A DNA stretch of 64,000 nt, taken from contig JANLRZ010000180.1 in NCBI GenBank assembly GCA_031362155.1, forward strand, positions 31,023 to 95,022, given 5' to 3'. Shown here piece by piece: positions 13,027 to 54,190 of the stretch (position 1 is its first letter; every line of letters begins with the position of its first letter). The translations under genes and the position numbers were made by a program. A model generated the notes under the pieces. That model saw only the letters and a list, made by a program, of their open reading frames with translations, ran no database searches and had not been told where the DNA came from. The DNA comes from Acidimicrobiia bacterium (GTDB lineage Bacteria > Actinomycetota > Acidimicrobiia > IMCC26256 > JAENVU01).

Positions 13027-13110
13027 CGCGACTGCTCCGATCAGGGAAAATGCTCGGCTCGGCACAGTGTACGGAGGCTCGCCTAGGCTCCCACCGCCCG
13101 GGGAACCGGG

Positions 13111-13148
13111 GTTACAGAGCGTTCATATTTCGGCAATAGAGCTGAAAC
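13111..13148 (+). promoter_or_regulatory. Putative GlnR box (11-bp periodic half-sites)
   Basis: gttac-n6-ttcat-n6-gcaat-n6-gaaac between divergent glnA and glnII; partial match to the gTnAc-n6-GaAAc consensus. Confidence 0.45.
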
Positions 13149-13253
13149 TGCGGACCGAAAAGCTTTTGGTGCCTCCGCTGCACGCTGAGGCGCCAAACCC
13201 GGTCCCACCGGACCGCCCGATTTCTTACCCACACGGACAATCAGGAGCATCAC

Positions 13254-14252: not shown

Positions 14253-14275
14253 TCACGCCCCGCACGTTCTGGCGT

Positions 14276-14315
14276 ACGAGGCCCGGACCCACCGATCAGT
14301 GGGTCCGGGCCTCGT
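14276..14315 (+). terminator. Hairpin terminator after glnII
   Basis: Perfect 17-bp stem acgaggcccggacccac / gtgggtccgggcctcgt with a 6-nt loop, starting 24 nt after the stop; no U-tract, as is common in Actinobacteria. Confidence 0.8.
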
Positions 14316-14423
14316 CGCGTCCCGGGGCGATTCGACTCAAGTGCCATTCCTGGTAGGTCGAAGGACAGGGTTGGCGCCGCGACGCTGTTTGTGCGACGCG
14401 CCGCCGGGATGGTGGGGGACCCA

Positions 14424-24200: not shown

Positions 24201-25150
24201 GAGGTGCCACTCGGCTGGGTGACGCTGTTTCCTGCGAACGAGGCTCCAACCGAGTGGGTGCCGACGGCGAGCCCGGCGGTCGAGAAGGTCGCGGACCCGT
24301 TCGACACGGACGCGACGCCGAGCGTGGTCGGTCCGTCGGTGAAGGTCACGGTTCCCAATGGTGAGCCGGTCGCACTGGCGACGGTCGCGGTGAACGTCAC
24401 GCTGGTGCCGAAGATCGTGGAGTTCGAACTCGAACTCAAGGTCGTCGTGCTCAACGCAGGATTGACGACCTCGGACAACGGTGAGCTGGTGCTCCCCAGA
24501 TAGCTCGCGCTCCCTGCGAAGACGGCGGTCATCGTGTGCGTACCGATCGTCGGGGTCACCGCCAACGTGGCGACGCCCGCCGCGGGAGTACGAGACGCGA
24601 GCAACGTCGCCCCGTCGTAGAACTTCAGTGACCCCGACGACGGCGCGCCGGTGCCCGGCAGACTCGCCGCGACGGTCGCGGTCAGCGTGATCGGACTGCC
24701 GAGGTTCGCCGGGTTCGCGCTCGACGTGACCGTGGTGGTCGTCGGCGTCGGGTTGATCACGAGGTTGAAGGGACTGCTGGAGCTGATCGCGTACGTGGCA
24801 TCGCCGGTGTACGTGCCGCTGATCGACTTGGTGCCGACCGAGTAGGTGGTCGTATAGCTCACCACGCCGCCGACGAGCTTCTTGGTGGCGAGTCCGGTCG
24901 TGCCATTGAAGAACGTGACGTTCCCGGAAGGTGTCGGTCCTCCCGGCGTGCTTGGCGCCACGGTGGCCGTCAGGGTGACGGACTGGCCGTAGACCGCCGG
25001 GTTCGCACTGGCAGTCACGGTGATCGTGGCGGGTGTGATGCCCACGGCGCGCGCCGATCGGGTGCCGGCAGCGCTGAGTATCAACGCGAGGAATCCGAAG
25101 ACCAACGCGCCGATGAGCCACCCGGCCCGGCCACACCGTGCAGTGTTCAT
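21260..25150 (-). CDS. Large secreted protein: 9 Ig-like (Big_3-type) repeats plus C-terminal right-handed beta-helix
   Basis: Signal peptide; nine ~90-aa repeats (T-x-T-x-T-A-T-V...P.G.VTF.DG...G.H.ITA.Y.GD); N-rich PbH1 repeats; C-terminal DRGAFEY. Confidence 0.88.
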   Translation of the reverse strand: MNTARCGRAGWLIGALVFGFLALILSAAGTRSARAVGITPATITVTASANPAVYGQSVTLTATVAPSTPGGPTPSGNVTFFNGTTGLATKKLVGGVVSYTTTYSVGTKSISGTYTGDATYAISSSSPFNLVINPTPTTTTVTSSANPANLGSPITLTATVAASLPGTGAPSSGSLKFYDGATLLASRTPAAGVATLAVTPTIGTHTMTAVFAGSASYLGSTSSPLSEVVNPALSTTTLSSSSNSTIFGTSVTFTATVASATGSPLGTVTFTDGPTTLGVASVSNGSATFSTAGLAVGTHSVGASFAGNSVTQPSGTSIGHTVAPAPTTTTVVASSPTTFVGDSVTFTATVVSATGTPTGTVTFTDGAITVGVAPLAAGQAVLTTATLPAGAHSLTANYAGDDTSAASSSSPVAHTVTAGTATVLAANVSPSAFGAAVTFTATVSSVSGTPTGSVTFAEGPTSISTETLVDGQASLTTAALPTGDHALTATYAGDGAFSPSTSPTLTHSVDRASTALALSASPTASAFGDPVVFTATVTPVNPGPTGSVVLFDGTTAIGTAAIQNGTAEFTVSTLGLGPHSITASLAGDSNFLPSTSAAVAFIVASNPTTTTMTASPNPAPYGTPVIFSANVTGVGGAPSGTVTFASGPTVFGTVDLVDGQATLTASGLEPGTFNVTATYAGDASFAQSASPGLGVTIDRAASTTDLTVTPNPAIATDPVALTATVTSNAGTPTGTVTFRDGPTELGTSALVDGQASLAVNFATAGAHTISAGYDGNSRYLPSVSAAVGQTITLAPSATALVGSPTLAAIGQPVTLTASVTSALGVPTGTVTFTDGSTSLGTNALVAGQASLTTTALEFGPHSIIATYSGSPTFASSTSPAVTETIATGLLFVDQANPACKTTGTGAGSAATPYCTINGAAGKVVPGVTVQVAAGTYAEKVTIGASGTAVAPITLTPAPGATVTVFGGANGFVATNKSWIVIRGFTVDGTKNPGIVITGGTNVTIDGNRVTHSGLPVSGSIAVGIKLSGTTNSLVANNITDHNTDAGILVTTDANNNVITRNESFANARGYSRAAAGIDLRNSTGNTVTANVVHDNEDSGINLWTGSTQGSNLAANNVSYANGDHGIDVHNAMDARVIANTVYNNYDSGIEMTTSTGTVLANNISVDNGIGSLRTSGNIRADSASAPTSTVNDDLVFLRVPGTVIDWGGVKYGSLATFRAATGQESRGIEANPQFVNPLAASFRLLSGSPAIDSANTAAPGQPLLDADGLGRYDDAAPNTGAGTITYADRGAFEYRP

Positions 25151-25381
25151 GATGGAGCTACTCCGCCCATATCTTCCTTCACGCGAATATCGCGTTGATT
25201 CTGTCGGGTCGTCCGGGTATCGCGACGGCTTATTCCGACGTTTCTCGGGCAAGGTGCCCGAAATCTTGTACCGATCGGGGTATTCGTCGGAATTCGGAAG
25301 TTCTCACGTTGTGGATGGCCTCAGTCATAGGCTGGGTCGGTCGCTCGATCGGTCGGCCGACACGGAACGAGGGGAACTGTC

Positions 25382-39701: not shown

Positions 39702-40559
39702 ATGTCATCTTCGAGCCCCGCGTCGCTCGCCGAACTGCTCGAACTCGAGCGGCTCGACCGTGATCTGTTCCGCGGTCAGAACGAACCGGGAGCGCGCGAT
39801 CGGTTCTCCCTCTACGGCGGGCAGGTCGCGGCGCAAGCACTCGCGGCGGCGGGCGCGACGGTCAGCGACGATCGGTTGCCGCATTCGTTCCACGGCTACT
39901 TCCTCCGGCCCGGTCAGGTCGACCGACCGGTGATCTTCGATGTGAACCGCGATCGAGACGGCGGTTCGTTCTCCGCCCGCCACGTGCGCGCGGTGCAGGA
40001 TGGTGAGGTCATCTTCTCGATGCTCGCCTCGTTTCACACCGAGCGCGACTCGCCGGTGTTCGACGCGGTGCCGGCACGCGACGCACCCGATCCCGAGACT
40101 CTGCCGTCGCGCCCCTCGATCGCGGCGCTCGTCGAGGTGCGGGAAGTGACGCCCACCCGGATCGTCGGCCGACAGATCCGGCATCCCGATTGTGTGTGGG
40201 TGCGCACGGTCGCGCCATTGCCCGACGATCCGCTCGTCCATGCGTGCGCGCTGGCGTACGCGTCCGACCTCGGGTCTGGATTCGGTCAGACCTACGTGCC
40301 CGGTCTGGCGACGGGCGGGCCGAGCATCGACCACGCCGTGTGGTTCCACGCCCCGTTGCAGGCCGATGAGTGGATGTTGCTCGACCTCGCGCCGCGGAAG
40401 GCGCGCTCGTCGCGGGGCGTGTACGACGGGTCGTTGCGCAATATCGAAGGTGAACTCGGTGCGGTGATCGCCCAGGAGATGCTGCTGCGCGAACTCGTGC
40501 TCGACGATGAGACTCTCCAACGGGTGGCCGACTTCCTCGGTGTCACGCCGGAGGAGTAA
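39702..40559 (+). CDS. tesB: Acyl-CoA thioesterase II
   Basis: YGGQVAAQAL, HSFHGYFLRPG, RDGGSFSAR, ALAYASD, SIDHAVWFH, AQEMLLR. Confidence 0.9.
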   Translation: MSSSSPASLAELLELERLDRDLFRGQNEPGARDRFSLYGGQVAAQALAAAGATVSDDRLPHSFHGYFLRPGQVDRPVIFDVNRDRDGGSFSARHVRAVQDGEVIFSMLASFHTERDSPVFDAVPARDAPDPETLPSRPSIAALVEVREVTPTRIVGRQIRHPDCVWVRTVAPLPDDPLVHACALAYASDLGSGFGQTYVPGLATGGPSIDHAVWFHAPLQADEWMLLDLAPRKARSSRGVYDGSLRNIEGELGAVIAQEMLLRELVLDDETLQRVADFLGVTPEE

Positions 40560-40579: not shown

Positions 40580-42934
40580 TCAGCGATGCGCGTCGCCGCG
40601 CCAGGGTTCAGCCTTGAGGTCGGGGTCGTATTCACGGAGCGGATGGCGGTTCGGGTCGAGCCACGCGTCGGTGTCCCACGGTTCGAATGCGTTGGTCACG
40701 TTGGCGAGACCGGTGGTTGCCAGTTCGGGGTAGTGACGCAGGATCACCGACTTCAGGTTGTTGTCGTCGACCCACTGAATTCCCTCGTCGCTGTAGACCT
40801 CGGGTCGGTAGTCGTCGGTGTAGAAGCGATCGGCCTGGAGTCGACGGCTCGCGTTGAGGATGAAGATCTGGAACATCGTCTCACCGAACCCGAACTTGGT
40901 CGGTCGGTGGGATTCGGCGAGTGTGCCGATCATGAGGTCGAGGTTCTCGACGTTGTCGCCGTAGACCTCGGTCAGCGTGCGAACGACGTCCGTGTCGTCG
41001 GTGAGGTCGTCGAAGGTGCGGATCGGGTTGAGTCCGAGCTGACGGCGGAACTCGTTGTAGCGGGGCACGCCTCGCTCCCGGGCGCGCAGAATGTCGATCG
41101 CACCCATGTCGAACACGGGGTTGCCCGGAATGCTGAGCTCCTGCATGAACTTCGGGAAGTTGTTGAGGACGAGTTGGCCGGGGTGCTGGTTGCCGAAGGA
41201 ATAGAAGAGGCTCGCCATGCCGATGGCATCGGTGACCTTGGGCGAACCGGCTTGTCGGCTGGCGACGAACGGCAGGGACTCGATCAGCGCGCCGGAGCGG
41301 AAGTCACGCAACTCGAGCGTTTCCGGCAGCAATGAGTGGAGCCGGTACACCTCGACGAACTCCTCGGAGAGCCCGTACGCAACGTCATGCCGGTTGATCG
41401 AGTTGCCGATCAGCCCGCCCAGCTCGGGGTTGGAGACCTTGAACTCGGCCACGGCCTTGCGATGTTCGGGCTTGCGGAACTTGTACGTGATGATGCCGTA
41501 CCAGTTGGAGTTGAGCGCCATGGTCAGGGTTTGGTTCGGCAGGATGGCCGGTGTCCACTCGGTGGAATGGATCTTGGCCATGACCGCGGCGTTGACCAAA
41601 CGCGCGATGTTGAACAGCCGGTTGTCGTCCCAGTCGGGATGCGCGCGCTTCAAGTGGTCACAGATTGCGTTGTGTTCGCGGGCGAACAGCGTGTGGAGCA
41701 TCGACAGACCGACCCACCAGTTGCGGATGAACCCGCTGTCCTCGACGCCGTTCGCGCCCCGCGGCAAGGTGTCGCCGTCGAGGCGGAGCTTGCCGTCGAC
41801 GCCGCTGCGCAACCGGTCCTGGGTTGCCTGGTTGCTTCCGTAGATCTGCGACCCGTCCCACCAGTGGGTGACCTCGTTCAGGTGAGTCACCGGCGTCGAC
41901 TCACCGAACTCCCGCCGTGTCGGATCGGGCTGGGTCCGTCCGATGAACATGTTCGACTGGCGGAATCGTTGACGGGCCGGATCGTCCTCGTCGAGGGGGA
42001 TCTCGATGAGGTCGCGCTGGAGGATCTCGCCGTGGGTGACCCAATCGTGATTCTGGAACTGGATCCACGAGGCGGCGAGCAGATTGAGGAATGGCACCTC
42101 TTTCATGGTCTCGCCCCGCGTGAGCAACTTGCGGCTGATCGTGCGCGGGTTCGGGGAGAGGAGTTCTTCGTCGGTGGGTCGCCGGATCGAGGAGTTGGCG
42201 ACGTTGCGTAGGAAGCGCGTGCCGGCGGCGCCCTCTTTGGGATTGTCGAGGCGGTTCCAGCTCCCGTCGGCGGTGCGGAAGTGGGTGACGCCCGGCGGTG
42301 GGGTGAGGTCGTCGGGCGCGAAGCCGGTTCTGACGTTCGTGGGATAGGACGAACGCAGGTTGTCGGCGTCGAGCTTGTTGCGCATGTAGGCGAGCGTGAG
42401 GATCCCCTGCGCGAGCTTCTTGTTGTACCAGTTCGTCCACACCTCGGCTCGGTAGTTCTTCCCGACGATGCGCGTCGCGGCGTCCCAGACCACGTTGGCC
42501 ACGGAGCCGCCGGCGTGGCCGACCAGATAACGCAGTCGTCGCCAGTGGGGGTCGGACCGGTCGGCTTCGGTCGGCGTCGGAAGCTCCGGTGCGGGCGGAG
42601 GCGCGAGCACGACACTGGCGTCGAAGAAGTGGAGTTCGGGAACGAAGACGTTCACTTCGGCGTGTGCGTTGGCGCGGGCCGAGTTCAACAGTTCGACCCA
42701 TTCGGCGTGGTCGGGTTGGCGTTCGAGGGCCCGGGCGAGATGGTCCGCAGCCGCCTCGTAGCGCTCACCGAGGAAGTGAGCGAGGCCCAGCAGCGCCTCG
42801 CTCTCACCCTTCGGGTCGTCGGCCGCGAGGTCGGCCAATGCGTCGACCGCGCCGTCGAAGTCTCGAGCGCGCAGATGCTGCACCGCTTTCTCCCGGGCGC
42901 CGTCCCAGTCTCCCTGCGCGTCGTGTTCGTTCAT
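40580..42934 (-). CDS. Heme peroxidase-cyclooxygenase family protein, fatty-acid alpha-dioxygenase-like, with TPR-like N-terminus
   Basis: LAASWIQFQNHDW (distal His), THWWDGSQIYGS, AKIHSTEWT, EEFVEVYRLHSLLP (catalytic Tyr and proximal His), ERGVPRYNEFRR, ASRRLQADRFYT. Confidence 0.9.
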   Translation of the reverse strand: MNEHDAQGDWDGAREKAVQHLRARDFDGAVDALADLAADDPKGESEALLGLAHFLGERYEAAADHLARALERQPDHAEWVELLNSARANAHAEVNVFVPELHFFDASVVLAPPPAPELPTPTEADRSDPHWRRLRYLVGHAGGSVANVVWDAATRIVGKNYRAEVWTNWYNKKLAQGILTLAYMRNKLDADNLRSSYPTNVRTGFAPDDLTPPPGVTHFRTADGSWNRLDNPKEGAAGTRFLRNVANSSIRRPTDEELLSPNPRTISRKLLTRGETMKEVPFLNLLAASWIQFQNHDWVTHGEILQRDLIEIPLDEDDPARQRFRQSNMFIGRTQPDPTRREFGESTPVTHLNEVTHWWDGSQIYGSNQATQDRLRSGVDGKLRLDGDTLPRGANGVEDSGFIRNWWVGLSMLHTLFAREHNAICDHLKRAHPDWDDNRLFNIARLVNAAVMAKIHSTEWTPAILPNQTLTMALNSNWYGIITYKFRKPEHRKAVAEFKVSNPELGGLIGNSINRHDVAYGLSEEFVEVYRLHSLLPETLELRDFRSGALIESLPFVASRQAGSPKVTDAIGMASLFYSFGNQHPGQLVLNNFPKFMQELSIPGNPVFDMGAIDILRARERGVPRYNEFRRQLGLNPIRTFDDLTDDTDVVRTLTEVYGDNVENLDLMIGTLAESHRPTKFGFGETMFQIFILNASRRLQADRFYTDDYRPEVYSDEGIQWVDDNNLKSVILRHYPELATTGLANVTNAFEPWDTDAWLDPNRHPLREYDPDLKAEPWRGDAHR

Positions 42935-43056
42935 TGACCTCTGCCTCGGGTTCGATGACCGATGCGACGTTCCCCGCCCGTCGCGAGCGGAAGGTACCAC
43001 CGACACTGGCCAACGGGCACTGGCGACTGGGTTCGGTCTACCGTGCGCTGCCCCTG

Positions 43057-44595
43057 ATGAAAGGACCGACTCTCGTGCCTCCTTCCGTGTCTCTCGGCTG
43101 GCGGGTGAAGCGCTGGTTCTGGAACACGCTCACGACGCTCAAGTACCACGGAGAGGTCCCGACCGTGATCGGTGCGCCCCGTCCCGATGACCGCGAGATT
43201 CGGCTGGTTCCGTTTCGGTCGAAGTATCCCGCGATCCCGATCAACGGCGCCCTCGTGGCCGATGAAGTGCCCGCCGATGAGGTCGAGCAGAAGAAGGTGG
43301 TGTTCACGAAGGTCCAGCACCGACTCCTTGATTGGATCCCGCCGACGACGGACGGGCTGCCCGCGGTCGCCGAGTCGGCGCAGGTCGCACTGGACGAGGC
43401 CTACACGCCCGCGCACCGTCGGTGTTTTCCCGAACCGGTGCGCCCATCCGAACTGGGGCTCGGCGCGCTGGCCGTCGCGAGTCCCTACGCGAGTTATCTC
43501 CACGCGTCGGGTCCGGGCACGTTTCGGTGGGACGTGAGTGTGCTCGCCGACTTCGAGTGCCACGCCGGGCTCGTGCCCCCGGGGGCCGTGGTCGACTTCA
43601 CACTCGACGTGAGCACCGGCGCGCTCGAGCCGATCCGGATCGAGGCCAACGGGGCCAGCGTGCAACCGGGAGCCGCCGGGTGGGCCGACGCGGAGCGGAT
43701 GGCGGTGTGTTCGGTGACGACCCACGCGGCCATGGTGCGCCACTTCAACTGGTTGCACCTGACCGCCGGCCAACCGCTCGAGGCCGCCACCCGGAATCGG
43801 CTCCCGGCCAACCACCCGATTCGACGGCTGCTCTGGCCACACGTCTTCGGGACTCACGCCGGCAACGCACTGGTCACGGACGTGTTGTTGTCTCCGGGCG
43901 GAGACTTCGAGGGGATCTTCAGCTTTACCCACCGCGGCATGTGCGAACTGTTCGATGCGACCTCGACGAGTTTTGATCTGGCCTCGATCAACCCGATCCT
44001 CGACGCGTCCCGGCGGGGCATGACCCAGAGCGCGGTCGCCACCCCCGCATCGGACAACTGGAGCAGTCTCTACGCGGTGATGTTCGACCATGCGCAGCGT
44101 TATCTCGCGGTGTATTTCCCGTCGGACGAGGATGTGGTCGCCGACCAGGCGCTGGGTGCCTGGATCGATGACCTCGACCATTTCCTGCCGAACGGCACCC
44201 GCGGGGTGCTCGGCGAGACGGTGACGGCCGCGGGCGTCGCGTCGCTGTTGGCCACGGTGATCTACCTCGCGACCGTGGAGCACGAGATCACGGGCAGTGG
44301 TCTGTGGGACTACCAATTGTGGACCGACACGTCGCCGGTCCGGATCTACGAAGACGGACGCCGGTTGCCCGTCGACGTGTATCAGCGACTCGTCAACGCG
44401 AATCTCACGCTGAACGTCCATCGCACGATGTTGCTGAACGACACCGTGATCGGTGTCGCGCTCGACGAGCGAGGGGCCGGCGCATTCCGAGAGTTTCAGC
44501 AGGACCTGCTGGGGCTCCAGGCGCGCCTCGATCGGGGCACCCCGGCACCGTGGCGGCTCGAGCCGCGTCACCTCAAGGCGAACATCAACGCGTAG
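43057..44595 (+). CDS. Lipoxygenase (divergent, catalytic domain only)
   Basis: VRHFNWLHL (two Fe-His), LP.NHPIRRLLWPH, TVEHEITG (third His), C-terminus LKANINA; start uncertain (43057 or 42955). Confidence 0.85.
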   Translation: MKGPTLVPPSVSLGWRVKRWFWNTLTTLKYHGEVPTVIGAPRPDDREIRLVPFRSKYPAIPINGALVADEVPADEVEQKKVVFTKVQHRLLDWIPPTTDGLPAVAESAQVALDEAYTPAHRRCFPEPVRPSELGLGALAVASPYASYLHASGPGTFRWDVSVLADFECHAGLVPPGAVVDFTLDVSTGALEPIRIEANGASVQPGAAGWADAERMAVCSVTTHAAMVRHFNWLHLTAGQPLEAATRNRLPANHPIRRLLWPHVFGTHAGNALVTDVLLSPGGDFEGIFSFTHRGMCELFDATSTSFDLASINPILDASRRGMTQSAVATPASDNWSSLYAVMFDHAQRYLAVYFPSDEDVVADQALGAWIDDLDHFLPNGTRGVLGETVTAAGVASLLATVIYLATVEHEITGSGLWDYQLWTDTSPVRIYEDGRRLPVDVYQRLVNANLTLNVHRTMLLNDTVIGVALDERGAGAFREFQQDLLGLQARLDRGTPAPWRLEPRHLKANINA

Positions 44596-46216
44596 GGGTT
44601 TCCTTTCTCCCCGGCGTGAGGGCGGCCTCCGGATTGGCAAGGAATCGCAATGCGGTCACCGAAGGACAGAAGAGATAGATCGAACCCACGGTCTGGATGA
44701 ACCGGGGGAATCCGGTGAGCACAACGGGTTCGGCGCCGGGGAGCGGGATCTCGAACGAGCTGGTCGCTTCGCGGTTGGCGCCGATGATCGGATCGTTCGT
44801 CCGGGTCACGCGCGGATCGTGCAGGCCGATGTTGATCCAGTCGTACATGACCGCCTCGAACTGCGCAATGAGGCTCGCACTCATGAAGTGGCCGAGTAGT
44901 CCGCGGCGGTGTCCGTCGTTGGGGTTGGCCGGGTCATACGGCGGGCCGTACGGCACACCGCGCCGAACCAGCGGCCGGGTGTAGTTGGCGCTGCGCTGGA
45001 CGATGCGCCCGTCCCTCGGGTTCGCGCGTCGGATGTGAGAACCGATGGGGCAGTGGGTGCCGTCGGAGTCGTCGAGCGCCGCGATCTCGTCGTCGAGGAA
45101 GTCGAAGTCGTTGAGGTTCTCGTCCGCCAGGGGAGGTGGGAGTCCGGGGCCGGTGAATGACGACTCGGCGTCCCCACCGACGGTCCAGTGCGACAACGAC
45201 AGCGGAACACCATTGCGCCACCTCCCCATCAACTTGGCCGCGATTCGTTCCTTGTCCCACACGATCTCGGGCGGGCCTGCGGGTTCGCCAACCGCGCGGC
45301 GCCGGTCGAGTTCGGTCGTGACCTCGAGGGCACTGCGCTCGAGGAACTGCTCGAACCCGTGGACGTCCTGTTCCATCATGCGGAAGGCGCTGAAACAACC
45401 GTTGACCCCGAGTTCGATCGTGACCGACCCCTCGGTCGCTTCGGGCATCTGCCAGGTGACGCCGGGGAAACTCGTCCGGTAGTGCTCGGCGGGCACCTCG
45501 GCCGTGCCGGGGTCGTCGATCCGGCCGAGGAGCACGGTCCCCACGGACGCGATCGGCTGGGCGTCGGCGCGGCCGGCGTACTGGCCCTTCACGACGAACC
45601 GGGGTTGGGAGATGCTGTCGCGGTAACCAAAGTGGACCGTGTCGCGGTCGGCGGCATCACCGGTGTACGTGTCGAACGTCGCGCCGTCGATGCGGGTGAC
45701 CACGGTGAATGCCTGCGACTCCGCCCACGCGGACTCGAGTCGGGTGGCGACCTCGTCGAGCGCGTCTCGGTGCTCGAGCGCGTGAATGGTCCACATCAAG
45801 TGGACGTGGTCGGCGTTGCCGAGCCCGTCGATCCAGTGCTCGGGTGCGCTGTCGGCGATGTCGCCGACTTTGCGGGCCCGGTGTGGTGCACCTTCGAGAA
45901 ACTCGTCGGGGAAGGTGGCCAGCCAGTCCGGCCGCAGGCCGAGGGCCCCCAGCCCGGCCGCCGTGATACCCACGTTCACGCAGGTGGCCGGCTTGGTGCC
46001 CTCCTCCCAGACCTCGGCCGTGGTCAGGGTCGGCATCCCATTGGTCCCGGTGACGATCGCAGCGATCGACGCCCGGGCCGCGGCGGGGTTCGCAACCCGC
46101 ACCACGATGTGGCGCACGAAGCGCATGTTGTAGCCGCGCAGGATGTTTCCTTGGATGTCGGCGAGGATCGTGTCGTCCGAGATCGTGACGCCGGGTGGAA
46201 GGTCAATCGTGGTCAT
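44585..46216 (-). CDS. Dyp-type (dye-decolorizing) heme peroxidase
   Basis: DIQGNILRGY, HFGYRDSISQP, CPIGSHIRRANPRD, LVRRGVPYG. Confidence 0.9.
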   Translation of the reverse strand: MTTIDLPPGVTISDDTILADIQGNILRGYNMRFVRHIVVRVANPAAARASIAAIVTGTNGMPTLTTAEVWEEGTKPATCVNVGITAAGLGALGLRPDWLATFPDEFLEGAPHRARKVGDIADSAPEHWIDGLGNADHVHLMWTIHALEHRDALDEVATRLESAWAESQAFTVVTRIDGATFDTYTGDAADRDTVHFGYRDSISQPRFVVKGQYAGRADAQPIASVGTVLLGRIDDPGTAEVPAEHYRTSFPGVTWQMPEATEGSVTIELGVNGCFSAFRMMEQDVHGFEQFLERSALEVTTELDRRRAVGEPAGPPEIVWDKERIAAKLMGRWRNGVPLSLSHWTVGGDAESSFTGPGLPPPLADENLNDFDFLDDEIAALDDSDGTHCPIGSHIRRANPRDGRIVQRSANYTRPLVRRGVPYGPPYDPANPNDGHRRGLLGHFMSASLIAQFEAVMYDWINIGLHDPRVTRTNDPIIGANREATSSFEIPLPGAEPVVLTGFPRFIQTVGSIYLFCPSVTALRFLANPEAALTPGRKETPTR

Positions 46217-46219
46217 GGT

Positions 46220-46873
46220 TCACCAACCGATCTCGAGCGCGTGGCGGATCTGGGCGACGGTGTATCCCGGGTACGAGCGGTAGGCGAAGAGCTGCACGTT
46301 GGTAGGCGGATCCGTTCGCTGGCACTCGTCGATGAGCAGGACCAACCGTCGACTCATCTTGACGATGTCGCGGTCGTCGGCGGGACCGAGCGCCAATGCA
46401 CTCGCCGGGTAGTCGAGCTGGAGGGCATCGCGGGTCCGCACCCACTCGATGAAATCGTCGGGGTACTGCTCGACCGGCAGCGGAGGCGCGTCATTGATGA
46501 AGGGGAGCAACGCGTCGAATGCCGAACCCACGTTGTAGATGAAGTCGCGGATGTAGTTGGCGAAGTCACCGTCGTAGAAGCTGAACATGCACAGGTTGTC
46601 ACCGACGATGGTGAACCGCGCGAAGTGCACGATCTGGGTGTTGTCGAGCCCGGCGATGACCTCTTGGACGGCGCCGGCCAGGGCCTGGATCAATTTCGCC
46701 CGACCGAACGGAGAGCCGTCGGCGAGGGGCATGACCAGGTTCATCGGGATCTGGATGTTGTCCGACGGATTCGTCGAGAACACGCGGACCGGGATCTGCG
46801 GCGGGTCACGCCGACGCCAGATCGCGGTCAGCGCCCTGATCAGCAGTCGTTCGCCCAGTCCTGGGGTGGTCAT
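46220..46873 (-). CDS. Hypothetical protein of the HFARF...SFYDG type, co-transcribed with DyP
   Basis: IVHFARFTIV..LCMFSFYDGDFANYIRDF..FDALL; 3-nt gap to the DyP start; RBS ggag. Confidence 0.7.
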   Translation of the reverse strand: MTTPGLGERLLIRALTAIWRRRDPPQIPVRVFSTNPSDNIQIPMNLVMPLADGSPFGRAKLIQALAGAVQEVIAGLDNTQIVHFARFTIVGDNLCMFSFYDGDFANYIRDFIYNVGSAFDALLPFINDAPPLPVEQYPDDFIEWVRTRDALQLDYPASALALGPADDRDIVKMSRRLVLLIDECQRTDPPTNVQLFAYRSYPGYTVAQIRHALEIGW

Positions 46874-46960: not shown

Positions 46961-48190
46961 ATGAACGTGATCTCGCCCGAGCTGGTCGGCGCCCTCATCG
47001 ACGCGATGGGTCCGTCGTTCCCCGAGCACGTTGCCGGAACCCGTCCGATCCACGCCAAGGGCATCGGCGTCGGGGGCAACTTCGTGGCGAGCTCGGTGGC
47101 GTCGAAGTACTGCGTGGCAAAGCAGTTCGACGGCCGCGTGGTCCCGGTGACCGTGCGGTTCTCGAACGGCAACGGTCAACTGGATCCGGACTTCCGGCTC
47201 CAGGTGCGGGGCATGGCCGTGAAGTTCTTCGCGGGCGGCACCCGGGAGACCGGGAGAGCCGGCGCTCGCGCCGAGCGCTCCTATGTCGGGATGCACTACG
47301 ACGACGGTCCGATCGTGGCCCGACCGGGCGAGGAGATCGCCGAGACCGACCTCGTCTGCATGTCGGCGCCGGTGTTCATGGCCCAGAGCGCCGAACGTCT
47401 CCTCGAGTTCGAGCAGAGCTACCGCGCCGTCAAGGTTCGCCGCGCCGGTCTGATGAAGCGCATCAAGTCGCTCCTCACGATGAGTCCGCTGCTCCCGCTG
47501 GAGTCCGGGGTCACGATGTCGGGCAACGAGGGATTTCTGCAGTGGGCCCGGACCTACCCGCCGGCCCAGGCATTCCTGCTTGCCAACGCTGGGCAGCGGC
47601 TCCCGGCGAGTTACGCGCGGGTCGTGTACGACGCGGTCCACGCATTCGAGGCGCAGGGATCGACGGGTACCCGTCGGATGGTGCGGTTCACGCTCGAACC
47701 GTCCGACGGCGTCTTCACCACCGGTGGACCCGACCCGGCCCAAACGCCGATCGCCTCGTTTCTCCGTCCGGCCGACCTCAACGCTCACGGGTCGGAGCTG
47801 GGCGCCGACTACCTCCAGCGCGAGCTGCGAGAGCGCCTCTCGTACGCGCCGGGCCGATTCAACGTGCGCATGCAGATCGCCGACCCGTCCGACGACACGG
47901 CGGACCCGACGGTGGCGTGGCCGATCAACCGGCGCCGGGTCCTGATGGGCACGCTGACCTTGACCCACGTGCTCGCAGATCAGGTCACAGGCTGTGAACT
48001 CCTGAGCTTCAACCCCGGGCGTCTCCTGCCGGGGATGGCGATCTCGGACGATCCGGTCCTCGCGGACCGGTCCGCGGTGTACGAGGAGTCGTATCGGCGT
48101 CGCGCCGCGGCGCGGGCGGGGGGCTCGATCACCCCGTCGTCGTCGTCTCCGAAAGCGTCCTCGTCGGGTTGCCCGATGGGGTTGTCCTAG
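46961..48190 (+). CDS. Small catalase-fold heme protein (catalase-related, hydroperoxide-lyase/AOS/SrpA-like)
   Basis: RPIHAKG distal His, VRFSNG, RGMAVKF, F.PGRLLPGM..SDDPVLADRSAVYEES (proximal RxxxY); 409 aa. Confidence 0.85.
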   Translation: MNVISPELVGALIDAMGPSFPEHVAGTRPIHAKGIGVGGNFVASSVASKYCVAKQFDGRVVPVTVRFSNGNGQLDPDFRLQVRGMAVKFFAGGTRETGRAGARAERSYVGMHYDDGPIVARPGEEIAETDLVCMSAPVFMAQSAERLLEFEQSYRAVKVRRAGLMKRIKSLLTMSPLLPLESGVTMSGNEGFLQWARTYPPAQAFLLANAGQRLPASYARVVYDAVHAFEAQGSTGTRRMVRFTLEPSDGVFTTGGPDPAQTPIASFLRPADLNAHGSELGADYLQRELRERLSYAPGRFNVRMQIADPSDDTADPTVAWPINRRRVLMGTLTLTHVLADQVTGCELLSFNPGRLLPGMAISDDPVLADRSAVYEESYRRRAAARAGGSITPSSSSPKASSSGCPMGLS

Positions 48191-50878
48191 CTATTCGTGG
48201 TCCGACACCGCGCTCGTGAGGTCACGACGAGCCCGCGCGATCTCACTGCGGACGTATTCCATCGCCTGATCGAACTCCATCGCCATTCCCGCGGCGACGT
48301 TGGCGTCGAACTCCGCATCGCCGAGTTTGGCCCGTAGGTCGTCGAGCACCTTCGGGAGGCGAACGGTCATGCTGATGCCCTGGCGGGTGCTCATGCCGTA
48401 GATCTGCGCCGCGATTTCGGGCTGGTCGAGCCCGTCGAACAACACCGTACCGAGGGCGAGCGTCGTGACGACGCTGCCGTGATTGCCGGCTCGGTGGTAC
48501 CGGGTCAACGCGGTGTCGAGGAGTTCGAGCGCCCGTTCCGGATGGCCGAGGACTCCTTCGAGCCCGGCGATCTCGCGGATGAAGTTGACCTCGAAGAATG
48601 CGAGGCGCTGTTGGCGGGCGTATTCGAGCGCGTCACGCATGATGACCATCGCCCGTACCGGGTCCGAGTCGGCGTAGGCGCGTCCGTGGCCGACTTCGGC
48701 GAACGCGATCCAGTAGGGATTACCGAGTTCGTGCGCCGCCGCGATCGCTGCGACGGCGAGGGCCTGGGCTTCGTCGGATCGATCGATGCCGGGCAACACC
48801 GCGAGGGGCAGGACGAGACCGACGACGCGAGTGAGTCCGGGCCGACGAGCGGCTTCGTCACAGATCTCGAACATCGTGTCGAGCCGTCCGGCGTACCGGC
48901 ACGCGAACGCCAGCCAGGCGTTGCTCCATCCGATTTCGAACGTCTCGTACTGCGGGTCCGCTTCGAGGGCCAGTGCCCGTTCGGCATACTCGATGGCTAC
49001 CTCGGGTCGGCCCGTGAGCGCACACACACAGGCCGCGGTGTACAGCCGAGGGAGCTGCACCACGTTGGCCGCAGTGGCCGCGGGAAGGATGTCTTCGACC
49101 CAGCCGAACGACTCGAAGCGCTGGAGGGCCATGGTCAGCATCGTGGTGTGGGCGGCGATGGTGACCGCCGTATCCAGTTCGTCGTGGGACGCCGCCCACC
49201 GGAACGCGATACGGAGATTGGCGAACTCGCGCTCGACCCAGTCGAGCGCGTCCCGCTGATTGGGACTGTTCCAGTGCGACCAGCGGATCTCGGCGTGTTC
49301 GGCGAAGTGCCGCGCGTGGACCCGACGCACGTCGTTCCGGGTCCCGGTCTCCTCGAGTTGTCCGTCGCCGTACTGGCGGATCGTCTCGAGCAGGGCGAAG
49401 CGCATCCGCCCGGCAGACTGATCGGTGGTGATCAGCGACTTGCGGACGAGCGAGTCGAGGAGATCGAGCACCGTGAACTCGTCGATCCCCGCCGAGGCGG
49501 CGATGGCGGTGGCGGCCTCGAGGTCGAACCCGTCGGCGAAGACCGAACACCGGTCGAGCATCAGTCGTTCGTCGTCGGTCAGCAGGTCGTAGGACCACGA
49601 CACCGCCTTGCGGAGCGTCTGGTGGTGTTCGAGATCGTGACGTGACCCGGACAACAGCCGGAACCGATCCGAGAGGCGGTCGCGAACATCGGCCGGGCTC
49701 ATCGAGGTCATGCGGGCGGCCGCCAGTTCGATGGCCAGCGCGAGACCGTCGAGGCGCCGGCAGATCTCGACGACTGCGGCCGCGTCGGTGGGGTCGTCAT
49801 CGGCGAAGGCCGGGTTGACCGACCGGGCTCGTTGGCGGAACAACTCGACCGCCGCCGACGTGGATCCCGCCGTGACGTCGAGGGTCGGGACGGGCCAGAC
49901 GTGCTCGGCGCCGAGGCGAAGACTCTCGCGGCTGGTGGCGAGGACCTGCACCACCTGGGTGGTTCGGAGCAACGCATCGACGAGATCGGCCGCGGCGGCG
50001 TGGACGTGCTCGCAGTTGTCGAGCACGATCAGGAGTCGGCGACCCGTCACGGCCTGGGCGATGCACTCGGTGACGGTGTGTCCCGCCATTGGCGTGACCC
50101 CGAGCACGGCGGCGACGGCATCGGGAAGTGATTCGGAGGCGCCGATCGGCGCGAGCGCCACCACCCAGACCCCGTCGGTGAACTCGTGGGCCAACTCGGC
50201 AGCGGCCTGGAGGGCCAGGCGAGTCTTGCCCACGCCGCCCGTCCCGGTGAGAGTGACGAGCCGGTGTTGGCGCACGAGCGTGCCGACTTCATCGAGCTGG
50301 TCCTCGCGACCGATGAAGCTCGTGGTCTGGGTCGGTAGGTTCCCGAGGGTGGCGCTGAGGGTGCGCGGCGGCGGGAAGCTCGATCTGAGCCCATCGGCGT
50401 GGACCTGGAAGAGGCGGGTCGCGTCACCGAGATCGCGGAGGCGATGTTCACCGCAGTCGACAAGTTGGATGGTCTTGAGGTTCTCGACGACGCTCGCCGT
50501 GGAGTTGTGCACGAGGATCTGGCCGCCGTGCGCGGCGTCCATCACCCGAGCCGCTCGGCTCAGGGTGAGTCCGAAATAGTCGCGGTCCCGTTGCTCGGCT
50601 TCCCCCGTGGCAATCCCCATCCGTACGGGGAGATCCAATGCGTGTTGGGCCTCGATCGCGGCATCGATGGCCGCCTGGCCCGAGTCGAATGCCGCACAGA
50701 CGCCGTCGCCGGTGTGCTTGAACAGGTCGCCGCCGTGGGCCGCGACTGCGCTTCGCAGCACGGCGTCGTGGGCGTCGAGTGCGGCACTCATCGTGTCGTG
50801 GTCGTCCCGCCAGCGCCGGGTCGAACCCTCGATGTCGGTCAGCAGGAAGGTGACGAGCCGTTGCGGACGTTCGGCCAC
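48191..50878 (-). CDS. Class III cyclase domain + STAND (NB-ARC-like) ATPase + TPR-like helical repeats
   Basis: FLLTDIEGST, KHTGDG, RAARVMDAAHGGQ, GTGGVGKTRL Walker A, LIVLDNCEH Walker B, RLDGLALAIELAAAR; start chosen. Confidence 0.88.
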   Translation of the reverse strand: MAERPQRLVTFLLTDIEGSTRRWRDDHDTMSAALDAHDAVLRSAVAAHGGDLFKHTGDGVCAAFDSGQAAIDAAIEAQHALDLPVRMGIATGEAEQRDRDYFGLTLSRAARVMDAAHGGQILVHNSTASVVENLKTIQLVDCGEHRLRDLGDATRLFQVHADGLRSSFPPPRTLSATLGNLPTQTTSFIGREDQLDEVGTLVRQHRLVTLTGTGGVGKTRLALQAAAELAHEFTDGVWVVALAPIGASESLPDAVAAVLGVTPMAGHTVTECIAQAVTGRRLLIVLDNCEHVHAAAADLVDALLRTTQVVQVLATSRESLRLGAEHVWPVPTLDVTAGSTSAAVELFRQRARSVNPAFADDDPTDAAAVVEICRRLDGLALAIELAAARMTSMSPADVRDRLSDRFRLLSGSRHDLEHHQTLRKAVSWSYDLLTDDERLMLDRCSVFADGFDLEAATAIAASAGIDEFTVLDLLDSLVRKSLITTDQSAGRMRFALLETIRQYGDGQLEETGTRNDVRRVHARHFAEHAEIRWSHWNSPNQRDALDWVEREFANLRIAFRWAASHDELDTAVTIAAHTTMLTMALQRFESFGWVEDILPAATAANVVQLPRLYTAACVCALTGRPEVAIEYAERALALEADPQYETFEIGWSNAWLAFACRYAGRLDTMFEICDEAARRPGLTRVVGLVLPLAVLPGIDRSDEAQALAVAAIAAAHELGNPYWIAFAEVGHGRAYADSDPVRAMVIMRDALEYARQQRLAFFEVNFIREIAGLEGVLGHPERALELLDTALTRYHRAGNHGSVVTTLALGTVLFDGLDQPEIAAQIYGMSTRQGISMTVRLPKVLDDLRAKLGDAEFDANVAAGMAMEFDQAMEYVRSEIARARRDLTSAVSDHE

Positions 50879-51082
50879 CTCCCCAGGATGCCATACCCGC
50901 TGGATGTACTTGCCAGTTCGACGACATCTGGCGGAGAGGGTCATGAGAGGTGCAGGTCGAGCCGGCGCCCGAGTACCGTCCAGCGGGGCAGTCGGGTGGG
51001 TGCAACTCGCCAGCCTGGCGCGGGAGGGCAACCGGGTGCTGGAGGCGACGATGACGTGCCAATCCGAGAGGTGGCCGTCGTG

Positions 51083-54000
51083 ATGATCCGACGGATCCCC
51101 GTGCTCCTGCGTGGGCTCACTCCGGTGTTCGCGCTCCTGCTCCTGGGTACGTCGCTGATCATGGGCCAACAGACCGACGTGATCGCGGCCATGCATCCCG
51201 AGGGGTGTCCGGCCGGAACGCCGGTCGAGTTCCAGTGGTCGCCGACGGGGACGCGCAACGAGCAGGAGTTCGTCGGCGTGGTCGAAGCGTGGAACTCCCA
51301 CCGCCTCCGGCGGGTGCCGGCGGGAACCGGTGGTGTCGCCGCCGCCAACTCCTGCAAGGTGGCCCTCAAGGACTCGGATGAGGTCGACCTGACCGGGCGG
51401 GTCAAGTCGCCGCACAGCATCGCCCGGCAATGGATGTGGACCGACATCCTCGGGTTCACGGCGCTCTACGGACTCTTGCTCGTCGGGCTCCTCCTCAACG
51501 AGCGGGTGCGCGCGCAGACCGCGGCCGCGCCCGACGAGCGCGCGCGCCCGCTGGGCCGCAATCTCGCGCGCACCGAACGGGAGCTCAACCGGTGGTTGCG
51601 GCACGGGTGGTGGTTCGCGGCGGTCGGGATCGCCGTGGCGATGGACTGGGCGGAGAACGCCGCGCTGCTCGGCCAGTTCCGCCGAGCCTGGGATCACGTG
51701 GTCCAGTTCGGAACGGTGTCGGCCGACCAGGTGGACCTCGGCTGGGTCCACGCGTTCGGGGTAGTGAAGTGGTTGGCGCTCGCGGCGCCGGTGGCGTTGC
51801 TGGTAGTGGCCTATGTGATCCGGGCCGTGCAGCGATTGGTCACGCTCCGAACCGTGATTCGCAAGCAGCTCCCGCTCCTCGCGGTCGCGATGGTGTTCGG
51901 GGTGATCCTCCTCGTGCCACCCCAAGGCCTCGACGCCGTCCGCGGGTTGTCGCTCACGCGTCTCTTCGGGACGCTCGCGGTGGTGCTCGTCCTCGGCCAG
52001 GTCCTGACCCTCGCCGGCGCGACCGCGTTGCGGAAGCAGCATCTGGAGGGGCAGGAAGCCCCGGTTCGTTCGACCGCCGAGTCACGGCGCCGCCGGCTGG
52101 CACCTTCGGTCGCGCTCCTGGCCGTGGCGTTGGCCCTGGCCGTCGTCGGCTCCCTGCTCGGATGGAAGGGTCTCCTGGTTCCAGCGGTGCTCCTGGGCGC
52201 GCTCGCGCTCGTGTCGGCGTTCATCGACTTTCGTGAGCCGTCCGGCGCCACCCCGCCGGAGCGCACGTTCGGTGACGCCACGATCGACGACTTCGATCTG
52301 CGGGTCTCGGTGTCGAGCGTGGCCGGGGCCTTGGTCGTGGTCGGGTTCGGCGCCGCGCTCGTCGAGACGGCGGCGTTGGATTTCGCATACTTCAGTTCGG
52401 CCGACGGCGTCGCGGCGCGGATGGGGATCGGTCTGGCCATCCTCGGTATGGCGCCGGCCGTGCGTGGATGGTTCCGACGGGTCGCGTGCTGGCTCGAGGC
52501 TCGATCCGACGCGCAGAAGACGCTCGTCGCAGTCCTCCTCACACTCCTGGCTCTACCGGGATTGATCTTCCACGACCCGGATCTCAACCTTCGTTTCGCA
52601 CCACTATTCGGCGCGGTGGTGGTGCTCGCCATGTTCCTCGGCGGGATGGCGCTCTTGCTCGTGTGGGCCGATCGCCTGGCCTTCTTCCTGGCTCGCAACG
52701 AGCAACGGCGAATGGTGTTCCTCCCCACGATCCTTCGGGAGTTCGGCGTCTCACGGCCGCCCGTCGTCAGCTTCGTGGTCGTGTGGGCTGTGGTGGCCGG
52801 CATCGGATTTCGCGGGACCGGTCACGACGTACGGGTCGTCACCGGATCGAAGGTTGCCGAGCAGTCGCTCGACTCGATCGTGGGCGCGTGGATCGATCGC
52901 CACCCGGGTCTGGCGACCGCGAACCCGCCGAACGCGGCCGCACCGGCGTTGCTGGTGAGTAGTTCCGGCGGCGGGATCCGCGCCGCGTACTGGACTGCCG
53001 CCGTGCTCGATTGCGTGACCGAGGGACGGACCGTCGGTTCCAACCCGTGCGCGCGCGAGACCGACCCCGCCACCGTTGCGCGTCGGCGAGGCGCGCTCCT
53101 CGCGATGTCGGGCGTGAGCGGTGGCAGTTTGGGTATCGCGGAGTACGTGAGCGAGACCGTGCCGGTCGGCATGGGCGAACGACATCCCGTCGCGGCGACG
53201 CACTGGTACGACGAGAAGCTCGGCGTGGATTTCCTTTCGTCGACCCTGGCCGCCTACTTGTTCAACGACGGTCTGAACTCACTGATCCACCCGGACCACC
53301 CAGTCGATCGGGCGGCGATCACCGAACGGTCCTGGGAGAAGCCGTGGTCCGATGGGCGCCTGGGCCGTCACTACCTCTCGGACCAGGCCACCCACACCCA
53401 GCCGCTCCTATTGCTGAGCGGCTACAGCGTCGAGGACGGCTGTCGGTTCTCGGCGTCGATCCTCGCCGCCAACGCGGGGCGGACCGCACAACAGTGCGGG
53501 AAGGCCGCGACCGGCCGTGACGGCGAGTTGCTGGCGAGCACCGACCTGCCCGACGTGCTGTGTGAAGGGACCGATGTTCGGTGGTCGACCGCGGCCCTGC
53601 TCTCGGCGCGGTTCCCTTGGATCAGCCCGACCGGCTCGATCGGTAGGGGTGCCTGCGGCGACCCCGCCGCGCACACGCAGGTGGCCGACGGCGGGTATCA
53701 CGAAGCGTCGGCTGCGAGTGCGATCAACGAACTGATGCCGCGGGTGCACGAGATCATCGACGAGCAGCAACAGGGCTGCGTCGTTCCCCTCTTCCTGCAG
53801 ATCGACAATGGGTATTCCGGACCGTCGTCGACGGCGGATTCTGCGGTCGGCCAGATCACTGCTCCGATCACGGGGATTCTGAAGTCGACCACCGGTTGGG
53901 AAGCGGCGGCACGGGCCGACTCGCGGCGGCTCTTCGGCGGTGCGTTCGGGAACCATCCGCGCGCAACGGTGAACGGCTCTCCGGTCGAGCGGTGGTTCCA

Positions 54001-54190
54001 CATCGAGACCCGAGCGCATCCGGGCGCGGAAGCTCCGCTCGGTTGGGTGCTCTCCAAGACCGCGACCGCGGATCTCAAAGACCAGCTCAAGGTGAACCGC
54101 GCCGAAATCGAGCGGTTGCGGAACGTTCTGGACGCAGAGACCGACCTCGAGTGCGCAGCCCCGCTCGTCGACCCGTCGACCCCGGGCTGA
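51083..54190 (+). CDS. Large polytopic membrane protein with C-terminal patatin-like lipase domain
   Basis: Many TM helices, then SGGGIRAA (52967), GVSGGS (Ser 53117) and ADGGY (Asp 53687); start within 51071-51083. Confidence 0.82.
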   Translation: MIRRIPVLLRGLTPVFALLLLGTSLIMGQQTDVIAAMHPEGCPAGTPVEFQWSPTGTRNEQEFVGVVEAWNSHRLRRVPAGTGGVAAANSCKVALKDSDEVDLTGRVKSPHSIARQWMWTDILGFTALYGLLLVGLLLNERVRAQTAAAPDERARPLGRNLARTERELNRWLRHGWWFAAVGIAVAMDWAENAALLGQFRRAWDHVVQFGTVSADQVDLGWVHAFGVVKWLALAAPVALLVVAYVIRAVQRLVTLRTVIRKQLPLLAVAMVFGVILLVPPQGLDAVRGLSLTRLFGTLAVVLVLGQVLTLAGATALRKQHLEGQEAPVRSTAESRRRRLAPSVALLAVALALAVVGSLLGWKGLLVPAVLLGALALVSAFIDFREPSGATPPERTFGDATIDDFDLRVSVSSVAGALVVVGFGAALVETAALDFAYFSSADGVAARMGIGLAILGMAPAVRGWFRRVACWLEARSDAQKTLVAVLLTLLALPGLIFHDPDLNLRFAPLFGAVVVLAMFLGGMALLLVWADRLAFFLARNEQRRMVFLPTILREFGVSRPPVVSFVVVWAVVAGIGFRGTGHDVRVVTGSKVAEQSLDSIVGAWIDRHPGLATANPPNAAAPALLVSSSGGGIRAAYWTAAVLDCVTEGRTVGSNPCARETDPATVARRRGALLAMSGVSGGSLGIAEYVSETVPVGMGERHPVAATHWYDEKLGVDFLSSTLAAYLFNDGLNSLIHPDHPVDRAAITERSWEKPWSDGRLGRHYLSDQATHTQPLLLLSGYSVEDGCRFSASILAANAGRTAQQCGKAATGRDGELLASTDLPDVLCEGTDVRWSTAALLSARFPWISPTGSIGRGACGDPAAHTQVADGGYHEASAASAINELMPRVHEIIDEQQQGCVVPLFLQIDNGYSGPSSTADSAVGQITAPITGILKSTTGWEAAARADSRRLFGGAFGNHPRATVNGSPVERWFHIETRAHPGAEAPLGWVLSKTATADLKDQLKVNRAEIERLRNVLDAETDLECAAPLVDPSTPG

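Follow-up and report, generated by a model that had tools for sequence, protein, structure and literature searches.

Lipoxygenase (LOX) genes in bacteria that make no polyunsaturated fatty acids (PUFAs) are a long-standing puzzle. The closest analogues, in size and shape, of the protein considered here are the cyanobacterial mini-LOXs (Cyanothece CspLOX2, PDB entry 5med, and those of Anabaena and Nostoc, such as NsLOX), which consist of a single LOX domain of ~450-570 aa with an N-terminal helical extension and without a PLAT domain; the canonical metal site of NsLOX is made up of His192, His197, His367, Asn371 and Ile455 (PMC10177866). According to the Kuhn laboratory, the His/Asn ligand cluster is essential for 'true' LOX sequences, and screens for bacterial LOXs discard sequences that do not carry it (PMC6612559). 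A bacterial dioxygenase may also work together with a haem enzyme, as the 10S-DOX of Nostoc does with a catalase-related lyase (PMC13049297). In this report, we analyse a gene for a LOX-like protein in a 64,000-nucleotide stretch of an Acidimicrobiia bacterium (contig JANLRZ010000180.1, positions 31,023 to 95,022; the window, numbered here from its first letter). We describe a conserved, non-canonical metal site shared by a widespread clade of such proteins, together with a gene for a predicted fatty-acid alpha-dioxygenase (alpha-DOX) that lies directly beside the LOX-like gene at most loci. Our data suggest that the LOX-like protein is probably a dedicated non-haem partner in an alpha-DOX fatty-acid oxygenation module and not a stand-alone PUFA lipoxygenase.

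The reading frame at 43057-44595 of the forward strand is open and translates into 512 aa followed by a stop. It is not a chance reading frame, because 439 homologues of its product were found, the nearest of them 94% identical; this nearest protein comes from an uncultured Acidimicrobiia metagenome-assembled genome (MAG), the closest relative of the window (GC content ~67%), in which the gene order is the same. Two alternative starts exist: a GTG at 43075, which would give a protein of 506 aa, has an AAAGGA box ~10 nt 5' of it and serves as the start in P0001, the 94%-identical relative; an ATG upstream at 42955 is less likely. The only Pfam family found in the protein is PF00305 (Lipoxygenase), whose match scores 33.5 bits, above the gathering cut-off of 23.6, and is confined to the catalytic core (positions 339-557 of a profile of 673). 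Pfam gave no match to a PLAT domain, no NCBIfam model matched the protein, and no signal peptide was present in it or in any homologue examined, across lineages, so that the description in the initial annotation of a protein of about 512 aa lacking both PLAT domain and signal peptide holds. PDB sequence searches returned lipoxygenases only (3e-11 with the single sequence and 3e-20 with a 68-sequence profile). AlphaFold2 (AF2) with the family alignment produced a model with a pLDDT of 94.2 and a pTM of 0.94, and the top 50 Foldseek matches of this model in the PDB were all LOXs (TMq 0.63-0.74, E down to 3e-17), including human 15-LOX-2, the Cyanothece mini-LOX and coral 11R-LOX. As judged from the model, the fold is that of a lipoxygenase, and the family assignment made from the sequence at the outset has survived the structural check. 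The N-terminus forms a Trp/Arg-rich amphipathic helix (H9-32 in the AF2 model) that is conserved in all homologues examined, and the Nitrospira versions carry an additional transmembrane segment; the protein is thus probably cytoplasmic, with an N-terminal helix that would bind the membrane.

We then compared the predicted metal site with those of known LOXs. The codons at 43741, 43756 and 44281 encode H229, H234 and H409, which hmmalign places on H499, H504 and H690 of soybean LOX-1, together with G413 on N694, V273 on A542 and L277 on L546; the internal numbering of the soybean sequence used is self-consistent. The first ligand cluster of canonical LOXs, His-x4-His (soybean H499/H504), is therefore present. 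In the second cluster, canonically His-x3-Asn/His/Ser, H409 is kept and the residue four positions on is Gly413. Three independent profile alignments put G413 on the Asn ligand or just beyond the end of the alignment; the H-E-x-x-G segment aligns onto 'QHAAVN' of CspLOX2, with the Gly on the Asn ligand, and in the alignment with the Enhygromyxa LOX (8x8f) the His ligand stands opposite His. V273 aligns with Gly in the R-type coral 11R-LOX (3vf1) and with Ala in the S-type enzymes 8x8f and 5med, which identifies it as the Coffa-Brash position, at which canonical LOXs have Ala or Gly. The chain ends in KANINA, with a terminal Ala where LOXs have Ile or Val. These results bear out the initial annotation with respect to the three His ligands, the Gly at the Asn position, the C-terminal Ala and the Val that had been placed at the Coffa-Brash position by eye. 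Gly413 presumably leaves one extra coordination position for solvent or substrate. Because the His/Asn second cluster and the Ala/Gly Coffa residue are both missing, the protein is set apart from canonical LOXs; its fold and its Pfam match place it in the lipoxygenase superfamily, outside any characterised LOX group.

The altered positions are not peculiar to this sequence. Among 118 near-full-length homologues (46-94% identity), H229, H234 and H409 are conserved in all, G413 and E410 in 116 each, and the C-terminal NINA in 110. Position 273 is Val in 103 and Ile in 12 (V/I in 115 of 118), and position 277, the Leu clamp, is Gln in 88 and Leu in 24. R228, T266, N270, T274, Y419, Q420, D440, N453 and R456 are invariant polar residues of the clade. 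The altered positions are thus near-invariant marks of a clade, so they would reflect a different conserved function and not drift or one-off divergence. The label 'divergent mini-lipoxygenase' given initially is apt as far as the PLAT-less LOX fold and the altered positions are concerned, and misleading in suggesting a single diverged protein. The clade is large: an exhaustive hidden Markov model (HMM) search over 1.84 billion representatives returned 191 clusters (50% identity) at E<=1e-30, a number that rises to 1,209 when the threshold is relaxed to E<=1e-10. A genome scan found the clade in Acidimicrobiia, Pseudonocardiales, Geodermatophilus, Myxococcota, Acidobacteriota, Rokubacteria, Nitrospirota, Verrucomicrobia, Rhodobacterales and Chromatiales, and it spans at least eight phyla, from soil as well as from the sea. 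Cultured strains with an orthologue include Pseudonocardia acaciae DSM 45401, P. eucalypti JCM 18303, Sorangium cellulosum So0157-2, Archangium gephyra and Sulfitobacter sp. EhC04 and DFL-14. Distant members keep H-E-x-x-G and end in other small residues, and in one subgroup a HINA ending goes together with Gly at the Coffa position.

More distant relatives were seen among the search representatives P0171-P0270: some keep H-E/D-x-x-G and end in ...VSS, ...VST or ...VNA, and others, with H-D-x-x-N, form a subgroup whose chains end in ...S(I/V)SN. Judging by these sequences, the NINA clade is one part of a larger and more diverse superfamily of non-canonical LOX-like proteins. Our literature search found nothing on this clade; most subscription papers lay outside that search, so an earlier description is possible.

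The second line of evidence comes from the gene on the other side of the divergent intergenic region. Its 784-aa product matches the Pfam An_peroxidase family with 370 bits, and its closest PDB relatives are plant fatty-acid alpha-dioxygenases (rice alpha-DOX 4kvj, 6e-116 over ~540 residues), compared with 1e-29 for lactoperoxidase and 1e-17 for COX. It keeps the catalytic Tyr379, the proximal His382, the distal His157, the carboxylate-binding His311 and Arg558/559. Among the 67 alpha-DOX-type partners that were compared, the counterparts of Tyr379, His382 and the two Arg are present throughout and that of His311 in 66, whereas the distal His was found in 51 of 67 in what is a rough alignment. 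The haem partner is thus of the fatty-acid alpha-dioxygenase type, with the corresponding activity predicted from these residues. Alpha-dioxygenases act on ordinary saturated or monounsaturated fatty acids.

This partnership recurs far beyond the window. An An_peroxidase gene adjoined the LOX-like gene in six of six contig look-ups and lay directly beside it at 69 of 80 species-representative genome loci (L008-L087), in at least eight phyla. The placement at these 69 loci was upstream on the same strand in 40, downstream in 15 and divergent in 14, and the gaps between the two genes were often shorter than 25 bp, or the genes overlapped. We also made the reverse count. Alpha-DOX-like loci were retrieved with a fusion query; 28 of them had flanks of 2 kb or more in either direction, and a LOX-like gene was present at only 11 of these 28, compared with ~86% of LOX-like loci that have an alpha-DOX gene. 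The LOX-like enzyme therefore appears to need alpha-DOX, and not vice versa, and this asymmetric occurrence is our main reason for placing the LOX-like protein downstream of, or accessory to, the alpha-DOX reaction.

Natural fusions join the same partners in one polypeptide. The representatives that score best in the exhaustive HMM search are long proteins whose C-terminal half is formed by the LOX-like domain. Pfam finds An_peroxidase together with Lipoxygenase in six of them (P0122, P0123, P0125, P0126, P0134 and P0142) and DyP_N together with Lipoxygenase in P0121, and three independent sources give P0123 at identical length. In the DNA itself, uninterrupted open reading frames (ORFs) for DyP::LOX-like proteins are present in three MAGs (L010, L062 and L066), and those for alpha-DOX::(linker)::LOX-like proteins in five metagenome contigs (L095-L099). 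In all fusions, the LOX-like domain lies at the extreme C-terminus and the chain ends in (N/H)(I/M)NA; this is the position expected of a domain whose terminal carboxylate is a metal ligand. Our literature search, with most subscription papers outside it, found no fusion or combination of LOX with either alpha-DOX or DyP.

The long alpha-DOX::LOX-like fusions (L095-L099 and P0125/P0134/P0142) contain a middle segment of 350-490 aa, a linker or an extra domain, in which no Pfam domain was found except a sub-threshold Gly-zipper. At four further loci (L089, at 5910-5925, and L090, L091 and L092), the alpha-DOX and LOX-like genes share a frame that is interrupted by one stop codon (TAG or TGA), and an ATG follows within 9-27 nt. 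Read-through or recoding of this stop is unlikely, given the nearby start, the occurrence of either TAG or TGA and the lack of other in-frame stops; the two genes are probably coupled tightly in translation, or were split or joined recently.

From the fold, the ligand conservation, the adjacency, the fusions and the asymmetric occurrence described above, we infer a metal, a substrate and an order of steps. The LOX-like protein would be a membrane-peripheral cytoplasmic metalloenzyme with a site formed by three His (H229, H234 and H409) and the C-terminal carboxylate of Ala512. A thioesterase or lipases would free a fatty acid, and the Tyr radical of alpha-DOX would convert it into a 2-hydroperoxy fatty acid. 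The iron of the LOX-like protein would then bind and transform the 2-hydroperoxide, or else carry out a second oxygenation of the same chain. Peroxides would be reduced or rearranged by the DyP and catalase-related haem proteins, and the cyclase-STAND regulator would control or sense the pathway. The iron would suit a 2-hydroperoxy acid because the site would be opened by Gly413, the pocket would be more polar and the Coffa residue is bulky; the active-site features that favour this reading are the Gln at the clamp, the V/I at the Coffa position and the invariant polar residues. In its boldest form, the model describes a widespread, PUFA-independent two-enzyme oxygenase, often on a single polypeptide, for which the lipoxygenase fold would have been repurposed: an iron bound by three His and a carboxylate, with two coordination sites open, would chelate the 2-hydroperoxy acid and convert it, yielding a new class of bacterial oxylipin or aldehyde signal that is read by the cyclase-STAND and Crp cyclic-nucleotide regulators encoded nearby; we put this forward tentatively, as a possibility with chances well below even.

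Several points weigh against the module as we propose it. The Coffa position varies between V, I, A and G among subclades, the same variation that is seen in true oxygenating LOXs, which hints that O2-dependent chemistry may have been retained. The Asn694Gly mutant of soybean LOX-1 reportedly is still a dioxygenase, and Gly at this position is by itself compatible with classical chemistry. In the coral allene oxide synthase (AOS)-LOX, which offers itself as an analogy, the LOX domain is the producer of the hydroperoxide and not its consumer. Furthermore, ten of the 80 loci have no adjacent alpha-DOX gene; three of these are on truncated contigs, and at three of the ten only Crp and the cyclase regulator are present. 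A search for another haem partner at the loci without alpha-DOX found none. The LOX-like enzyme, stand-alone at ~12% of its loci, may thus act alone or with a distant partner.

In the main rival reading, the LOX-like enzyme is itself the hydroperoxide generator: it would oxygenate an unsaturated fatty acid, possibly a monoene or some unusual diene, to a hydroperoxide that is used by the DyP or catalase-related protein or that primes the Tyr radical of alpha-DOX. We consider this unlikely. It would fit the retention of all LOX ligands except Asn, the A/G/V/I variation of the Coffa residue between subclades, the loci without alpha-DOX and the FA_desaturase gene that follows the pair in Hyalangium. 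The fusions, with the haem domain N-terminal and the LOX-like domain C-terminal, also resemble AOS-LOX; however, a domain that needs a free carboxylate has to come last in the chain, and its place is uninformative about the order of the reactions. In addition, the Leu clamp is mostly Gln and the Coffa site is bulky, and alpha-DOX homologues often occur without a LOX-like gene, whereas the reverse is not so. Most of the host lineages (Acidimicrobiia, Pseudonocardiales, Nitrospirota and Rokubacteria) are not known as PUFA makers, the main ORFs of the window include no desaturase or pfa gene, and neither kind of gene is recurrent in the 80 neighbourhoods. The precedent for a generator of this kind is the Nostoc 10S-DOX with its catalase-related lyase (PMC13049297).

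The interpretation to which the initial annotation leads, a divergent mini-lipoxygenase that works on its own on PUFA from algae or plants outside the cell, with an unusual regio- or stereochemistry dictated by the Val and a redox potential altered by the Gly and the Ala, has lost ground. The LOX fold and the three His ligands agree with it, as do the stand-alone loci and the association of certain hosts with algae or plants (Sulfitobacter from cultures of Emiliania; soil taxa). However, the lack of a signal peptide in every lineage examined points to a cytoplasmic enzyme, the adjacency to or fusion with alpha-DOX is near-obligate, the traits are clade-wide across very different habitats, and thioesterase, lipase or patatin genes are nearby, which together make this interpretation improbable. 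A catalytically inactive LOX-fold subunit that binds lipid or serves as a scaffold, passing membrane fatty acid to the haem enzymes, would account for the loss of one canonical ligand, for the conserved amphipathic N-terminal helix and for the fusion to enzymes that are catalytically complete on their own, and is nonetheless very improbable, since the three His, the exact C-terminus and the surrounding polar residues are invariant over at least eight phyla, which is the pattern of a working metal site.

The coordinates of the LOX-like gene, its motifs and its neighbours are collected in Table 1.

Table 1. Features of the LOX-like locus, in coordinates of the 64-kb window
Feature	Position	Strand	Remarks
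Acyl-CoA thioesterase II	39702..40559	+	285 aa; kept in close relative L001/L013; upstream of the alpha-DOX gene
Alpha-DOX-like haem protein	40580..42934	-	784 aa from ATG 42934 (GTG 43006 possible); N-terminal TPR extension and An_peroxidase; divergent to the LOX-like gene
Shared divergent intergenic (promoter) region, alpha-DOX-like/LOX-like	42935..43056	.	No sigma-70 promoter or terminator consensus
LOX-like gene	43057..44595	+	512 aa from ATG 43057; lipoxygenase catalytic fold, no PLAT
HFNWLH motif	43741..43758	+	H229 and H234, predicted metal ligands (soybean LOX-1 H499/H504); preceding R228 invariant
V273, Coffa-Brash Ala/Gly position	43873..43875	+	L277, four residues on, is the Leu-clamp position
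HEITG	44281..44295	+	H409, third His ligand (H690); G413 in place of the Asn/His/Ser ligand (N694)
C-terminal NINA	44581..44592	+	Ala512 carboxylate, presumed fifth ligand, replacing Ile/Val
DyP-type haem peroxidase	44585..46216	-	543 aa; convergent with the LOX-like gene, 3' overlap 11 bp; 8re3 2e-31; GSHIRRANPRD proximal-His motif
Conserved 217-aa protein	46220..46873	-	Accompanies the DyP gene in Acidimicrobiia
Small catalase-related haem protein	46961..48190	+	409 aa; MAP_2744c / allene-oxide-synthase-like type; Pfam Catalase 3e-20; PDB 3e4w 2e-31
Adenylate/guanylate cyclase - STAND (AAA_16/NB-ARC) - TPR regulator	48191..50878	-	Start approximate, by analogy with the 895-aa gene in L001

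Other genes around the pair are less constant. The cyclase-STAND-TPR regulator was found at 40 of the 80 loci, DyP at 17, the catalase-related protein at 10, a Crp-type cyclic-nucleotide-monophosphate-binding protein at 9 and patatin at 5. Because of the frequency of the cyclase regulator, the presence of Crp and the existence of three loci (L053, L072 and L083) whose LOX-like gene has Crp, an ECF sigma factor and the cyclase regulator as its only neighbours, our data suggest that the module is linked to cyclic-nucleotide signalling. Patatin, thioesterase and GDSL lipase genes lie near the module at various loci, and the acyl-CoA thioesterase II of the window is a plausible supplier of free fatty acid. 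The best match of the catalase-related protein is MAP_2744c of M. avium (3e4w). A DyP neighbour occurs in Acidimicrobiia and Rhodobacterales. The gene for the 217-aa protein always adjoins that for DyP in Acidimicrobiia, and seven sequences of the protein share 57 invariant positions. Searches with this protein in Pfam, NCBIfam and the PDB gave no match, a profile comparison showed no similarity to the DyP family, and its single-sequence AF2 model reached a pLDDT of 33. The STAND, cyclase and patatin neighbours also led us to consider anti-phage defence, a reading that was dropped when PADLOC gave no match for six proteins of the cluster.

Two lineages have neighbourhoods of their own. In Hyalangium gracile, a gene for a 270-aa FA_desaturase (L003:11549-12361) lies directly after the alpha-DOX and LOX-like genes on the same strand, and it is the sole desaturase in the neighbourhoods. 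In marine Rhodobacterales (L067-L070, L073, L075, L077, L079 and L086), a distant DyP-like gene (26-29% identity) is located ~7 kb upstream of the pair, and between the two are four co-conserved ORF families of ~330, 382, 246 and 129 aa, with no Pfam match.

Elsewhere in the window, the tRNA-Arg(CCT) called by ARAGORN at 5343-5421 on the reverse strand falls within the coding sequence of a DUF2855 protein (Pfam 1.8e-103) and has no Rfam tRNA match at the gathering score; it is probably a false positive, and no Rfam family was found in the window. Two divergent-facing genes of the glutamine synthetase family (one full GlnA-like and one divergent), followed by genes for PAS-GGDEF-EAL and penicillin-amidase-family proteins, occupy 11701-16715 and appear unrelated to the LOX-like finding. 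The reverse strand at 21260-25303 encodes a protein of ~1,347 aa, with nine Big_3_5 Ig-like repeats and then a right-handed beta-helix/NosD region, that is likely to be at the surface or secreted. A long open frame on the forward strand at 50399-54190 resembles a gene in its GC content at third codon positions (GC3) and matches no Pfam family; in its 5' part it runs across the regulator's extended frame, which lies on the other strand, and its counterpart in L001 consists of two hypothetical genes of 164 aa and 849 aa.

We regard the partnership as more interesting than the oddities of a single gene, since the near-obligate coupling to alpha-DOX and the natural fusions provide a concrete, testable hypothesis for the role of the clade. 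If this hypothesis is true, the lipoxygenase fold would have acquired a new reaction type or coordination chemistry, and the module would be the first alpha-DOX-centred oxylipin pathway in non-photosynthetic bacteria. The fusions would then be self-contained enzymes, possibly useful for making aldehydes or hydroxy/oxo fatty acids from ordinary fatty acids, and lipid oxidation would be tied to cyclic-nucleotide signalling.

The comparison with known systems shows both what the module shares and where it departs. The cyanobacterial mini-LOXs are among the best structural matches of the LOX-like protein (TM 0.71), which is likewise a PLAT-less single domain with an N-terminal helical extension, and their His-x4-His and third His align with it; however, the identity is only 15-16%. 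Mini-LOXs keep the three His, Asn and C-terminal Ile ligands and have Ala at the Coffa position, where the NINA clade has Gly, a C-terminal Ala and Val, respectively, and they are not paired with alpha-DOX. Coupling of a dioxygenase to a haem enzyme that handles hydroperoxides is likewise found in the coral catalase-related AOS::8R-LOX (3dy5), in the catalase-related::LOX protein of Anabaena and in the Nostoc 10S-DOX with its catalase-related hydroperoxide lyase. The AOS-LOX type also has its LOX domain at the C-terminus, and the window likewise holds a catalase-related haem gene. In contrast, the conserved partner in the NINA clade is a predicted dioxygenase of the alpha-DOX type or DyP, the catalase-related gene being present at a minority of loci, and the LOX-like metal site is non-canonical. 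With the plant and cyanobacterial alpha-dioxygenases (rice 4kvj, Arabidopsis 4hhr), the product of the neighbouring gene has the catalytic residues in common, whereas the bacterial alpha-DOX-like proteins, known here from sequence, differ in their variable N-terminal extensions (TPR in the window) and in their coupling to a LOX-like gene. A LOX fold that works on the product of another dioxygenase is represented by epidermal lipoxygenase-3 (eLOX3), a hydroperoxide isomerase in which restricted O2 access at the Coffa position favours the isomerase activity. The likeness to eLOX3 is a mechanistic hypothesis only, since eLOX3 has canonical ligands, a PLAT domain, another LOX (12R-LOX) as its partner and no sequence closeness to the clade. 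Finally, the first-sphere substitution itself has a laboratory counterpart in Asn694Gly of soybean LOX-1, in which water is said to replace the Asn and activity to be lowered without being abolished. That mutant (Segraves et al. 2006, Biochemistry 45:10233, as cited in PMC10177866) is a modified canonical PUFA LOX; in the NINA clade, by contrast, the Gly is the conserved natural state and is accompanied by a different second sphere and a C-terminal Ala.

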